In this document: positions 1 to 5,162 of the stretch, one piece after another
Layout: the number at the start of each line of letters is the position of its first letter
Numbering within the stretch: position 1 is the first letter of the stretch
IMG/VR virus record: IMGVR_UViG_2671180574_000017
DNA: 5,162 nt
Reading direction: 5' to 3' (one strand)
DNA from: a virus
Taxonomy: Duplodnaviria > Heunggongvirae > Uroviricota > Caudoviricetes
Program-made: the position numbers and the translations under genes
The notes under the pieces: model-generated
The model's database searches: none
Told to the model about the DNA's origin: nothing
Seen by the model: the letters and a program-made list of their open reading frames with translations, nothing else

Positions 1-39
1 AACAAATGGTAGTGTCCGCTATTGCCAGTACACCTCAGG
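1..39 (+). mobile_element. Right-terminal fragment of an IS3-family insertion sequence; the body of this copy lies upstream of the window
   Basis: Bases 1-39 are identical to 2098-2136, the sequence just after the transposase stop of the IS at 1214-2136; the two diverge after ...cctcagg. The end resembles an IS3-group terminal repeat (GTGTCC.CTATTGC...CA). Confidence 0.7.
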
Positions 40-164
40 GTATAAGGGGTTATGGCCACCGGACTACCAAACGGCTGCCAGCCCTCTTTCAGTTTATGTG
101 TCAGCTTTTCCGCAAGATCTGACGGCGGCGCCGCCCTGACAACATCATAGTGTTTAAATGCCAT
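40..164 (-). CDS. Small lambdoid-phage late-region protein (DUF1737-like, tentative), 3' end disrupted by IS insertion
   Basis: Minus-strand ATG at 164-162 preceded by GGTGGA Shine-Dalgarno; translation MAFKHYDVVRAAPSDLAEKLTHKLKEGWQPFGSPVAITPY, then the frame runs into the IS end at 39/40 and continues open to the window edge. Family assignment is from memory of the motif, not a search. Confidence 0.45.
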
Positions 165-760: not shown

Positions 761-1213
761 GGAGTTTACTCACATCTGACAAAATCAATATAAACAGCCC
801 CTCCGGAGAGGGGCTGGAGAGTGGCGCTATGTGCCATTGCATGGTGCCGGGTGCCTCCCGGTGAATTCAGTACCAGCACCTGAATCCGCGATTATCCCAT
901 ATACCTACTCGCTGATTGCCCCTCCGCACAGGGGGATTCACCATGCCAGTTTCTTTTAACAAACTCCCCGCAAACCAGACAACAGTCAACCGCCTGAATT
1001 GTGAAGTATTTAAAAATTTCTCCCGCTAACTGATACCCGGCTAACAGTCTGGCGTTTTCTTTTTCAGCAACGGGAAAGCAACAACCACCACACCCGCCAC
1101 CAGCACACCGTCAGCCAGCACTGACATTATCCGGCTGCTGCAATGCCATTCACAAAAACAGTAAGCAATCACTTTTTACCGTAACAGGTGATAATCCAGA
1201 TATGTATCTACCC
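467..1213. repeat. 747-bp duplicated module, copy 1 (100% identical to 3528-4274)
   Basis: Line-by-line comparison shows identity across the full 747 bp at offset 3061; different flanks on both sides in each copy. Confidence 0.9.
796..815 (-). terminator. GC-rich hairpin (AGCCCCTC-CGGA-GAGGGGCT), possible minus-strand intrinsic terminator; also at 3857-3876
   Basis: Perfect 8-bp stem; on the minus strand it is followed by GTTTATATTGATTTTG (interrupted T-run). Confidence 0.3.
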
Positions 1214-2666: not shown

Positions 2667-2743
2667 TGGACCGCCATCGGGGACTTGAACCCCGCGCAGC
2701 CAGCTTCGAAGGCTGGCGCTCTTTCCTGATGAGCTAATGGCGG
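2667..2743 (-). tRNA. tRNA-Arg (anticodon UCG), phage-type
   Basis: Manual cloverleaf: acceptor CCGCCAT/ATGGCGG, D-stem GCTC/GAGC, anticodon stem CCAGC/GCTGG with loop CTTCGAA, T-arm CGGGG-TTCAAGT-CCCCG, encoded CCA. Confidence 0.75.
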
Positions 2744-2750
2744 TATGTGA

Positions 2751-2796
2751 TGGTGGCCCTTGCTGGATTTGAACCAGCGACCTGGCGATTATGAGT
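2751..2796 (-). tRNA. 3' partial tRNA-Ile (CAU): 46 nt from the anticodon loop to CCA, with the 5' half replaced by unrelated DNA (att-like remnant)
   Basis: Identical to the 3' 46 nt of the intact tRNA at 4910-4985; identity stops at the anticodon stem-loop boundary. Confidence 0.8.
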
Positions 2797-2905
2797 TGGT
2801 TGATAACCCTTTACTTACAGATACTTAGCGATACTTTTCAATACCTTAGCATTTTTTAAAACTACTGTATAAATACCTGTATATACCCCAAAATACTTCT
2901 TTACG

Positions 2906-2953
2906 GTATCCTATAGGTATCCTGGAGCAGAACAAGCGATTTTCCAGGATACC
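2906..2953. promoter_or_regulatory. Cluster of GGTATCCT repeats (two direct, one inverted) between the tRNA fragment and the integrase start; candidate integrase arm-type sites or int operator
   Basis: GGTATCCT at 2906-2913 and 2916-2923; perfect 11-bp inverted repeat GGTATCCTGGA (2916-2926) / TCCAGGATACC (2943-2953). Confidence 0.35.
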
Positions 2954-2976
2954 AGATCGCTTGGTGGGGTGTATGA

Positions 2977-3528
2977 GTGAAATTATTCAGATTCTCTAAA
3001 GTAAAAATTGCAGAACTGCCAACGCCGGAACATGGACAGGTCGAATATGGTGATACGGAGGTTAACGGGCTGCGTGTCCGTGTAGGTTCGTCTGGTGTGA
3101 AAAGTTTCTGCATTTCCCGTAAGCGTAACGGAAAATTTATTCGTGCAACGCTGGGGCGTTTTCCTGATCTGAGCGTGGATAATGCCAGGGCTAAAGCTAT
3201 GGAACTCCTTGGCGAAGTCGCCACAACGGGGATAAATCCGAACATAGCAAAGCGCACTAACAACAAGGCCATGATAACGCTGAGTGAGGCGATTGACGCC
3301 TACGTAAAAAATCGTGGCCACCGCCTGAAACCCGCCACAGAAAAACAGTACCGCAGCATATTACAGAATTATTCCGGTGACTGGATGGCCCATACCCTCG
3401 CCAGTATTTCCCGCGAACGGGTGGAACAACGGCATAAGGCCATCACTGATGGGGCTGTATGGTTCGGTGCTGATAAAACCACGTTACGGGCTGGGGTTGG
3501 TACAGGAAGCAAGGCACAGGCCGATTAG
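2977..3528 (+). CDS. Tyrosine recombinase / phage integrase, N-terminal fragment (arm-binding and SAM-like domains), 3'-truncated at the module boundary
   Basis: GTG start after a GGTGGGG RBS-like run; the N-terminal ~150 aa shows the typical arm-binding-domain pattern (GL.VRV...G.KSF......GK.....[15 protein letters not shown]...V..GINP) and then a linker ([11 protein letters not shown]...[13 protein letters not shown]); no catalytic domain; the stop codon overlaps the first base of the module. Confidence 0.75.
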
Positions 3529-4274
3529 GAATATCTTTTTCAGTCATATGGAGTAAAATAAAATTAATAATCTGGTATCAATCGGATGCTTTCTTACCTC
3601 CTGAAAGTATATTTACACTGACTCACACAGGCATCATGCTCAATAACAAAGTGCTACCTGTAACCATTTACAACGTAGTACCATTCAATAAAACATTCTG
3701 GAATTCAATCAAAAATAGCCAGGAATGCCCTACAAATACAGATAACGTATTGAATGAATGCTTTAATAACCGTTGCACTCTGCAAATATGTCCTTATGGA
3801 CTAAAACAACAAAGTCCATAAGGAGTTTACTCACATCTGACAAAATCAATATAAACAGCCCCTCCGGAGAGGGGCTGGAGAGTGGCGCTATGTGCCATTG
3901 CATGGTGCCGGGTGCCTCCCGGTGAATTCAGTACCAGCACCTGAATCCGCGATTATCCCATATACCTACTCGCTGATTGCCCCTCCGCACAGGGGGATTC
4001 ACCATGCCAGTTTCTTTTAACAAACTCCCCGCAAACCAGACAACAGTCAACCGCCTGAATTGTGAAGTATTTAAAAATTTCTCCCGCTAACTGATACCCG
4101 GCTAACAGTCTGGCGTTTTCTTTTTCAGCAACGGGAAAGCAACAACCACCACACCCGCCACCAGCACACCGTCAGCCAGCACTGACATTATCCGGCTGCT
4201 GCAATGCCATTCACAAAAACAGTAAGCAATCACTTTTTACCGTAACAGGTGATAATCCAGATATGTATCTACCC
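3528..4274. repeat. 747-bp duplicated module, copy 2 (100% identical to 467-1213)
   Basis: See copy 1; here it lies between the truncated integrase (plus) and a truncated minus-strand ORF. Confidence 0.9.
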
Positions 4275-4622
4275 CAGATGAGTAATCCGAAGTTCATCCA
4301 TACCACAGGTCCTGGCTATTCTGTTGTACTCCTGAACAAGAGCAAATAATTCTGAATTAGCAACCATGAACTCATCGCAAACCCTCTGTATAGCATCACT
4401 ATTCAGAATAATAACGTCTCTTCCCGAAAGACGATCAGGAGTACAGAACAAAACTGTCAAACGGCTGAAGGCCTTTGCTCGTGCTGCATTGACTATATCA
4501 ATACGCTGCCTAAGGATGAAACACCCCGACGCCTCATCAATATTCACTCTACCCACACCATATGAATGATAAATATTTAATGCTGAAAAAACCATTAGAC
4601 CGTATAACAAACACTCAATCAA
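4269..4622 (-). CDS. Hypothetical protein, probably a 3'-truncated fragment (last codon and stop are supplied by the module end)
   Basis: ORF-track ORF (TTG start; internal ATG at codon 10); AT-rich codon usage; no recognisable homology; the frame ends exactly at the module boundary. Confidence 0.3.
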   Translation of the reverse strand: MIECLLYGLMVFSALNIYHSYGVGRVNIDEASGCFILRQRIDIVNAARAKAFSRLTVLFCTPDRLSGRDVIILNSDAIQRVCDEFMVANSELFALVQEYNRIARTCGMDELRITHLG

Positions 4623-4732
4623 TACTTAACAGAACTTTTATTTTTGACAAACATAAAATATTTTCAACAATATCCTGAGCCAGGTATATTTCAGTATAAG
4701 GCTCTGCCGGAAGGAATCTGGAAGAATGAATA

Positions 4733-4809
4733 TGGCGCGCTGTACTGGATTCGAACCAGTGACCGATTGCTTAGAAGGCAATTGCTCTGTCCGGCTGAGC
4801 TAACAACGC
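4733..4809 (-). tRNA. tRNA-Arg (anticodon UCU)
   Basis: Same cloverleaf as 2577-2653, with one acceptor-stem change giving a G-U pair; encoded CCA. Confidence 0.85.
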
Positions 4810-4822
4810 TGAATACCGATAA

Positions 4823-4902
4823 TGGACCGCCATCGGGGACCCGCCCCCGCACCAACAACCCTGTTATCGTGTCGTCTGCTCTTCCTGATAAGCTAATGGC
4901 GG
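4823..4902 (-). pseudogene. Degenerate tRNA-like gene (homolog of the tRNA-Arg UCG at 2667-2743); acceptor and D-arm kept, anticodon arm and T-loop replaced
   Basis: Both termini match 2667-2743 (TGGACCGCCATCGGGGAC ... CTAATGGCGG); the interior is a GC-rich 45-nt segment with no canonical anticodon arm and no TTC T-loop. Confidence 0.55.
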
Positions 4903-4909
4903 TTTGTGA

Positions 4910-4985
4910 TGGTGGCCCTTGCTGGATTTGAACCAGCGACCTGGCGATTATGAGTCGCTCGCTCTCACCACTGAGCTAAAGGGCC
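4910..4985 (-). tRNA. tRNA-Ile2 (anticodon CAU, lysidine-type; ileX/ileZ-like)
   Basis: Manual cloverleaf: acceptor GGCCCTT/AAGGGCC, D-arm GCTC-AGTGGTGA-GAGC, anticodon loop CTCATAA, T-arm GCTGG-TTCAAAT-CCAGC, discriminator A, CCA; closely resembles E. coli ileX as recalled. Confidence 0.85.
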
Positions 4986-5028
4986 GGGAGCAGAATAATA
5001 ACGGTCCGTAATTAATTCCGCAATAAAA

Positions 5029-5048
5029 AACCCGCTCGGCGGCGGGTT
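5029..5048 (-). terminator. Intrinsic terminator upstream of the tRNA array (tR'-like position)
   Basis: Minus-strand hairpin AACCCGC-CGCCGA-GCGGGTT followed by TTTTTTATT. Confidence 0.5.
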
Positions 5049-5095
5049 GTAGAAACTCTTCTAACGTCAGGCATAAAACGCCCATAGTTATGACG

Positions 5096-5123
5096 AATTT
5101 ACCACAGATTCCGGAAAAATCAA
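5096..5123 (-). promoter_or_regulatory. Candidate lambdoid late promoter (PR'-like) reading leftward into the terminator and tRNA array
   Basis: On the minus strand: TTGATT, 16-bp spacer, TAAATT, then ...ATGGG; this resembles the lambda PR' -10 TAAATT and ATGGG transcript start as recalled from memory. Confidence 0.35.
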
Positions 5124-5162
5124 CCTAGTTACCTTTTTTAACTGCCGCTCAGCCCATGCTTC

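Follow-up and report, generated by a model that had tools for sequence, protein, structure and literature searches.

The window analysed here is a stretch of 5,162 nucleotides from a tailed virus (Caudoviricetes; IMG/VR record IMGVR_UViG_2671180574_000017). Its minus strand carries an 80-nt tRNA-like element between a tRNA-Ile2 gene (ileZ) and a tRNA-Arg gene (argO). We propose that this element is a T-loop-damaged allele of a non-decoding tRNA-like gene that fills the middle position, slot X, of an Ile2-X-Arg array in a lambdoid late region. It cannot read any codon. Its middle, as judged from alignments, was inherited from an older family of anticodon-less genes built on a tRNA-Arg body and is not a scrambled version of argN, the proper tRNA-Arg (UCG) gene found in the same slot of other arrays. 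We give a probability of about 0.55 to the reading that the window allele is non-decoding and probably functionless, still co-transcribed and excised by RNase P, and at most a processing spacer. The novel part appears to be the place of the element in a family with conserved chromosomal members, since no Rfam family and no paper describing such a family was found within the limits of the searchable literature.

A tRNA-Arg body with a non-decoding centre

On the minus strand, from 4902 to 4823, the element reads CCGCCAU-UA-GCUU-AUCAGGAA-GAGC-AGACGACACGAUAACAGGGUUGUUGGUG-CGGGG-GCGGGU-CCCCG-AUGGCGG-U-CCA (Table 1). An earlier, sequence-only reading had delimited a tRNA-like gene whose coordinates and strand proved exact, and had described the acceptor stem and D-arm as canonical. 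This was confirmed, as all 7 of 7 acceptor pairs and 4 of 4 D-stem pairs are formed and G18G19 is present. The 7-bp acceptor stem is the same in argN and in all family members, and it ends in a discriminator and an encoded CCA as in canonical tRNAs. Two canonical features are lost, as the same reading had noticed. There is no anticodon arm (5-bp stem, 7-nt loop, U33 and readable anticodon), its place being taken by a non-anticodon hairpin, and the 7-nt T-loop with U54-U55-C56 is replaced by a loop of 6 nt, GCGGGU. The hairpin can be drawn in two ways: the pairing CGAUAAC/GUUGUUG closes a loop of 3 nt, the pairing GACGA/UUGUU one of 13 nt. The predicted fold of the whole element is cloverleaf-like and of ordinary stability (-28.9 kcal/mol). 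A feature on the plus strand was considered and rejected, as the fold of that strand is unremarkable (z=-0.75), and a 95-aa open reading frame (ORF) at 4644-4931 that overlaps the element is merely antisense to three tRNA-type genes.

Table 1. Coordinates of the tRNA-like element, its parts and related features (window positions unless another sequence is named)
Feature	Position	Strand	Basis or remark
Whole tRNA-like element, slot X of the Ile2-X-Arg array; 80 nt, T-loop-damaged allele	4823..4902	-	sequence, fold, match to covariance model R1
Acceptor stem, 5' strand CCGCCAU	4896..4902	-	pairs with AUGGCGG at 4827-4833, 7/7 pairs
D-arm GCUU-AUCAGGAA-GAGC, G18G19 present	4878..4893	-	stem 4/4 pairs, one U.G
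Middle AGACGACACGAUAACAGGGUUGUUGGUG, non-anticodon hairpin	4850..4877	-	homologous to the middle of the K-12 paralog, not of argN
T-arm, 5-bp stem CGGGG/CCCCG intact, 6-nt loop GCGGGU replacing UUCGAGU	4834..4849	-	allele-specific lesion
Discriminator U and encoded CCA 3' end	4823..4826	-	
ileZ, tRNA with CAT anticodon, annotated tRNA-Ile2 in matching records; 7 nt upstream of the element	4910..4985	-	ARAGORN, Rfam
argO, tRNA-Arg (UCU); 13 nt downstream of the element	4733..4809	-	ARAGORN, Rfam
argN, proper tRNA-Arg (UCG) with the same body, in the second (partial) array copy	2667..2743	-	ARAGORN, Rfam, alignment
Intrinsic-terminator-like hairpin and U-run, upstream of the tRNA array	5029..5048	-	
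81-nt tRNA-like gene between yahL and yahN, E. coli K-12	locus L004, 3001-3081; NZ_CP011342.2, ~344,428-344,508	- (yahM strand)	

The general tRNA models reject the window allele because its T-loop is destroyed. ARAGORN called the four flanking and paralogous tRNAs of the window and left the element uncalled, and the Rfam tRNA model RF00005 gave no match to it even at E<=10 with a 94-nt search space, in agreement with the earlier expectation of a pseudogene or no call; argN scores 58 bits with the same model. Permissive Rfam thresholds applied to the window and to the K-12 locus yielded only noise besides the known tRNAs and STnc100, and no described Rfam family fits the element. The closest allele with an intact T-loop, of the type found in phage phiP27, reaches 26.4 bits, just below the gathering score of 29, and RF00005 aligns its middle as the 5-bp GACGA/UUGUU stem closing a 13-nt loop. 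In strain ETEC4067 this form is labelled 'tRNA-OTHER' by PGAP.

Comparison with argN separates what was kept from what was replaced. Alignment and repeat finding revealed two blocks of identity, 4720-4840 with 2564-2684 (91%) and 4882-4955 with 2723-2796 (97%), which bracket a block that cannot be aligned (4841-4881 vs 2685-2722). The acceptor stem, D-arm, T-stem and CCA are common to both genes, a similarity that is due to homology and not chance. The claim that the termini are conserved with argN around a different middle was thus borne out, with two amendments. The CGGGG/CCCCG stem had been counted as part of the replacement, yet it corresponds to a retained T-stem homologous to that of argN. 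Likewise, the replaced segment had been described as GC-rich, but the replaced arm contains 50% G+C (counted from the sequence), below the middle of argN, and only the T-loop region is G-rich. When the middles were aligned, that of the window scored 46.5 against the K-12 type and 16.5 against argN. As compared by eye, the window middle would differ from the K-12 type in having 5 nt duplicated in tandem (ACGAC-ACGAU) and 4 nt lost from the 3' linker.

Public collections were scanned with the 5' body and then with the 3' body to remove ascertainment bias, and the family architecture was defined from 29 distinct sequences. Their arms were parsed by script, as the MAFFT alignment (A4) staggered the variable middle. 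The covariance model R1, built from A4, matches the element over its full length with 68.2 bits; it is dominated by the shared body and gives argN 72 bits, and therefore it tests membership of the body, not the subtype, and was left unused for covariation statistics. The same tRNA body carries three kinds of centre: the Arg-UCG arms of argN, Arg-UCU arms, and non-decoding centres. The latter follow a common plan, in which a linker of 1-3 nt leads to a hairpin of 4-10 bp, its 3' strand almost always GUUGU and its loop of 3-11 nt (GUAC, CAUUAA, CGUAAGC, CUCGCU and CCAGGA among others), then to a linker of 3-7 nt and to CGGGG-UUCGAG[G/U]-CCUCG. Some hairpin is kept in the middle of every member. 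Almost all non-decoding members have the 8-nt D-loop AUCAGGAA, whereas proper tRNA-Arg copies have GGA[A/U/C]AGAGC, one nucleotide longer (9 nt in argN). The acceptor and T stems are essentially invariant, so that covariation cannot test them, and the only clear compensatory change is a D-stem pair of the member at locus L364 (G10-C25 to A10-U25). ARAGORN assigns mutually inconsistent identities to the members (Ser-GGA, Leu-UAA, Leu-UAG, Arg-ACG, or '???' with anticodons of 2 or 4 nt), as is expected if the family arm does not decode; the L146 type reaches 38.4 bits with the Rfam tRNA model. In phage context, a member is nearly always preceded by an Ile2 tRNA gene at a distance of a few nucleotides, and a further tRNA usually comes after it.

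The element has the acceptor stem, 8-nt D-loop and CCA of this family, its middle (AG-ACGAC...GUUGUUG) and its position directly downstream of tRNA-Ile2 (CAT) in an array. Its T-arm reads CGGGG-GCGGGU-CCCCG in place of the canonical family form, and for this reason we file it as a damaged allele and not as an intact member. The sequence-only reading had left the choice between a decaying pseudogene and a tRNA-derived structured RNA, and each alternative holds at its own level. Alignment across related prophages found the variant middle conserved, and closer to a chromosomal tRNA-like gene than to argN; therefore the lineage is taken as a family of tRNA-derived structured RNAs. The window allele itself shows the signs of decay that the pseudogene alternative names, with its T-loop destroyed and relatives that carry independent T-arm and acceptor lesions.

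Chromosomal relatives under selection

A sensitive search with 103 nt around the element matched the yahM locus in 5210 of 5426 E. coli genomes, with about 80% identity across the element itself. In K-12 the match is a tRNA-like gene between yahL and yahN with the same body, the GAGC-AG-ACGAC...GUUGU architecture and a canonical T-arm; an anticodon arm is missing. RefSeq carries no annotation for this gene, which ARAGORN takes for tRNA-Ser(GGA) and to which Rfam gives no match. The K-12 gene is identical at 81/81 positions to the copies of four other Escherichia species (E. albertii, E. whittamii, E. ruysiae and Escherichia sp. E1V33) and of one other E. coli strain; identity in the flanks is 77-85% over 150 nt upstream and about 40-47% over 100 nt downstream (78% in the E. 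coli strain). At the rate of change of its upstream flank, the gene would match any one other species at 81/81 positions with P<=4e-7. A second chromosomal lineage is represented in Klebsiella oxytoca (locus L131, 5584-5658, between a dsbD-like and a lysR-like gene) and in loci L264, L309, L336, L360 and L370. Its members measure 75-84 nt and show the ACGAC/GUUGU stem, a GUAC or AUAC tetraloop and discriminator C. The divergent Klebsiella-type copies of L264 and L309 agree at 73/75 positions of the element, with 61-67% identity in the upstream 150 nt and about 40% in the downstream 100 nt, and the equivalent probability is about 1e-10. These comparisons point to strong purifying selection on the chromosomal paralogs, and it is very probable that the intact members on chromosomes are genuine RNA genes kept by selection.

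The annotated ATG of yahM (L004, 2766-3011) is the AUG of the acceptor 3' strand of the tRNA-like gene (AUGGCGGUCCA). E. whittamii, E. ruysiae and Escherichia sp. E1V33 lack the yahM ORF, and another E. coli strain has it in broken form. A conserved promoter-like block, TTGACA...AUAAU, lies about 100 nt upstream of the chromosomal Escherichia copy. The yahM promoter has been reported to be active and repressed by IHF (bioRxiv 10.1101/2025.05.13.653802), the one indirect sign that a family member is expressed; literature searches on the yahM locus returned nothing on a tRNA-like RNA there. Thus yahM may be a mis-annotated non-coding locus, and the expression signals attributed to it may reflect the tRNA-like RNA.

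We tentatively consider, at somewhat less than even odds, that the family as a whole represents an undescribed class of anticodon-less 'top-half' tRNA mimics, in which a tRNA scaffold bears a variable hairpin, and that this class has a real function in the cell or the phage. The chromosomal members, in Escherichia (under yahM) and in Klebsiella-like genomes, would then be selected RNA genes, and the lambdoid members would be those that follow tRNA-Ile2. If so, E. coli K-12 gains a non-coding RNA gene, yahM is re-interpreted and its transcriptome signals are explained differently. The target of the phage alleles, and perhaps of the T-loop variant among them, would be some partner that binds tRNA, for instance RNase P, a modification enzyme, arginyl-tRNA synthetase or a defence toxin directed at tRNA. 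The question would then arise what an anticodon-less tRNA body does in phage-host conflict or in the processing of tRNA operons. The element alone matters little, as it is common and probably inert, and annotation pipelines skip it or label it pseudo or OTHER. What matters more is that phage tRNA arrays and enterobacterial chromosomes hold a common family that keeps the features of processing and of acceptor/T-arm recognition and not those of decoding, with chromosomal copies conserved as tightly as real tRNAs. If these RNAs are functional, it also follows that the spurious identities given by tools such as ARAGORN (Ser-GGA, Leu-UAA, Arg-ACG) contaminate counts of tRNA genes.

Damage, spread and probable fate of the window allele

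Many E. coli chromosomes and the genome of phage mEp460 contain the 285-bp array (4716-5000) with 100% identity. In about 1000 E. coli records the best array match is at least 99%, and in 2578 of the 5426 genomes a match spans at least 80% of the query. All 36 of 36 exact copies of the element follow an Ile2 3' end. Matching records place the array with the Q antiterminator (or a DNA methylase) on one side and the lysis genes on the other, Q being upstream and the lysis genes downstream at loci L001 and L003, and annotate nothing between tRNA-Ile and tRNA-Arg. In phiP27 and related Shiga toxin 2e (Stx2e) prophages the same gene with the same middle has the canonical UUCGAGU T-loop, and the phiP27 annotation lists only ileZ and argO in the array. 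A paper on the stx2i prophage (2026) notes 'tRNA-pseudo-tRNA-Arg' at the position of the element (PMC13641118). Literature searches found such mentions at the level of annotation and no study of the element itself.

Two changes define the window type, UUCGAGU to GCGGGU in the loop and CCUCG to CCCCG in the stem. The rare type-B alleles (L024, L037, L097 and L250) keep CGGGG-UUCGAGU-CCUCG, and the phiP27 allele has one T-stem mismatch. The window form is derived, as the related alleles keep a canonical T-arm, and it is the most derived form of the element. Its T-loop lesion is lineage-specific, while the anticodon arm was already non-decoding in the ancestor shared with the phiP27-type and chromosomal copies. 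Within the window-type lineage further T-arm variants occur: the G-run is 5, 6, 10 or 12 long, a G of the loop is changed to C, or 1 nt of the T-stem is deleted. Other lesions comprise two different G>A changes that break the acceptor stem, a deletion of the CCA and trailer, an insertion of the insertion sequence (IS) IS421, and a deletion of the 3' half that runs through a CAACAACC microhomology. The last of these is recurrent (L044, L066 and L103; compare window 1078-1090): it removes the 3' half of the element together with argO and joins ...GGGUUGUUG to the region of the DUF3927 gene through that microhomology.

Polymorphism was counted in 31 haplotypes of the array. The T-arm holds 8 of the 13 variant columns of the element, 8/16 against 5/64 elsewhere (p=3e-4). 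Counted whole, the element (13/80) did not separate from the real tRNAs of the array (19/153, p=0.43), and only the partition between T-arm and rest was informative. The T-stem variation of argO is compensatory (C-G to G-C), a pattern which shows what constraint looks like in this array.

From these data we propose the following fate for the window allele. The element, which lies downstream of the late promoter and terminator, would be transcribed within the ileZ-X-argO polycistron of the late transcript. As its acceptor/T-stem minihelix and CCA are intact, its 5' end is probably still a cleavage site of RNase P. Tightly spaced polycistronic tRNAs are separated by RNase P in E. coli (PMC2190699), and a cut at the 5' end of the element would also release the 3' end of ileZ, leaving a short trailer that can be trimmed. 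Such processing could explain the clean stems outside the T-loop; it gives no account of the conserved middle hairpin. The excised 80-nt RNA would be unable to decode and would lack the U54-U55 elbow contacts, and because these residues are missing it is probably poorly modified and unstable. Most likely, then, the window allele lost whatever function the intact family has, and it would persist as a processing spacer hitch-hiking between two useful tRNAs.

Several observations weigh against an inert allele. The damaged allele is the commonest form, 100% identical in more than 1000 E. coli genomes and present in phage mEp460, and being so common it is clearly not strongly deleterious. Apart from the T-arm, the element varies as little as ileZ and argO do (5/64 vs 19/153 variant columns) and quieter than the spacers (5/64 vs 9/20, p=4e-4), which could mean residual constraint and not a dead gene. 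The haplotype sample is young and recombining, so these comparisons of rate have low power, and every RNA-level step for the window allele is our inference.

The foremost alternative is that the window allele is still a functional tRNA-like RNA, with its function in the acceptor stem, D-arm and middle hairpin and with the canonical T-loop dispensable or even counter-selected in these phages. It might imitate the top half of a tRNA, or serve as a decoy, towards a defence toxin or an enzyme that binds tRNA, or it might use the tRNA scaffold to present a hairpin for base pairing. The strong purifying selection on the chromosomal paralogs (81/81, P<=4e-7; 73/75), the compensatory D-stem change of L364, the hairpin kept in every member, the conservation of the part outside the T-arm at the level of real tRNAs and the frequency of the allele, carried also by mEp460, all agree with it. 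Yet a canonical T-arm is present throughout the intact family (in part imposed by the search pattern), the lengths of the G-run in the loop are unconstrained, acceptor-breaking variants and deletions occur in the window lineage, and no function is known for any family member. We therefore regard a functional window allele as unlikely.

A plain argN pseudogene, in which the centre of tRNA-Arg (UCG) was scrambled by random mutation or local replacement in the prophage lineage, would account for termini near-identical to those of argN in the same window and for a position in the slot of argN between ileZ and argO. However, the middle is essentially unchanged in phiP27, mEp460 and many viral contigs, it aligns to the chromosomal paralog of K-12 and not to argN, the 8-nt D-loop is a character of the family and not of argN, and the same slot in other phage arrays holds other anticodon-less family members. 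The family data largely refute this explanation, which we consider improbable.

Very improbable, too, is a role at the level of DNA, as an attachment site or identity block for satellites or phages, the variable middle being the scar of crossovers in the anticodon loop. The tRNA genes of the same array are indeed integration targets, as indicated by the fragments of ileZ and of an integrase Arm-binding domain at 2752-3528, and satellites that target tRNA-Ile2 are documented (PMC10111431). But none of the loci examined showed an integrase or a duplicated piece of the element, its interruptions are an IS insertion and microhomology deletions and not att-type (attachment-site) junctions, and the differences lie on both sides of the arm, which does not fit a single crossover. 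Finally, although ARAGORN calls some members with a canonical T-arm and Rfam gives the L146 type 38.4 bits, a normal decoding tRNA with an overlooked alternative fold can practically be dismissed for the element, in which no 5-bp stem and 7-nt loop with U33 can be drawn, the 6-nt T-loop has no U54, U55 or C56, neither ARAGORN nor Rfam finds a match and the fold energy is unremarkable (z=-1.29 vs -2.85 for argN).

Genomic surroundings and related systems

The window is a mosaic. Its right part (3528-5162) is lambdoid late-region DNA with a partial iraM, STnc100, the DUF3927 gene, argO, the element, ileZ and the terminator. The terminator-like hairpin (5048-5029) has a position that would fit the late-operon terminator tR' of lambdoid phages, and about 110 nt at the window edge precede it. 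This edge (5029-5162, minus strand) presumably corresponds to the short late transcript of lambdoid pR'/tR', a source of 6S-like and StxS-like small RNAs. The second, partial array copy consists of a 3' fragment of ileZ (~2796-2752), argN (2743-2667) and argO (2653-2577). An IS3-family element at ~1200-2137 (orfB with rve domains; IS600-like according to matching records) has its terminal 42 nt also at window 1-42, and 467-1210 repeats 3528-4270; the IS copy and this duplication show a heavily rearranged, apparently Shigella-like prophage remnant. The whole arrangement was found in no complete E. coli genome, and no record covers at least 80% of the window. There are three copies of STnc100 (Rfam, 124-132 bits; 786-975, 2311-2500 and 3847-4036, minus strand), one per copy of the duplicated late-region segment, and STnc100-related motifs accompany family members in other prophages (L135 and L139). 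In Kluyvera (L139, 3260-3325) an internally deleted tRNA, its 5' half joined to the 3' acceptor end and preceded by an STnc100-like motif, lies directly upstream of a family member; this decayed prophage tRNA array is flanked by genes for a histidine kinase and an isochorismatase.

The ileZ fragment (~2752-2796, minus strand) starts at the anticodon loop. About 180 bp from it lies a truncated tyrosine-integrase gene (2977-3528, plus strand) with only the Arm DNA-binding domain, cut off exactly at the 3528 repeat junction. Both would fit what is left of a satellite or island once inserted in the tRNA-Ile2 gene of the prophage, an integration of the kind described for phage-inducible chromosomal islands (PMC10111431).

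Among Stx-type phage contigs (for example the viral loci L017, L010 and L011), the most frequent allele of argN is imperfect: one mismatch, A6.A67, disrupts its acceptor stem (…GAAGGCGG), another, A.C, its T-stem (CGGAG/CCCCG), and the 3' end of some copies is UCA, not CCA. Even the proper argN gene in slot X may often be impaired.

Among the closest known systems is argN itself in the ileZ-argN-argO array of Stx and other lambdoid phages, which occupies the same slot and has an identical acceptor stem, a near-identical D-arm and the same T-stem 5' strand, discriminator and CCA as the element; argN differs in its CCAGC-CUUCGAA-GCUGG anticodon arm, 9-nt D-loop and 7-nt T-loop. The middle gene of P27-like Stx2e and stx2i prophages, labelled 'tRNA-OTHER' or 'pseudo-tRNA' or unannotated, is the same gene with an identical middle, but it has the canonical UUCGAGU T-loop and scores 26.4 bits, whereas the window allele with GCGGGU has no score. 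The yahL-yahN gene of K-12, apparently undescribed so far, shares the body and middle architecture with about 80% overall identity to the element, and differs in its 81-nt length, canonical T-arm, own conserved promoter-like block, location outside tRNA arrays and invariance in Escherichia. Other non-decoding RNAs of tRNA shape are the tRNA-like module of YrlA, a bacterial Y RNA, the tRNA-Other of Bacillus cereus and the stable RNAs C and D of phage T4. Such RNAs are processed like tRNAs and sometimes lie in tRNA clusters, as RNAs C and D do in that of T4; YrlA has a Ro-binding stem and adjoins rsr, and tRNA-Other has an anticodon arm. To our knowledge, the element has no sequence relationship with any of them.

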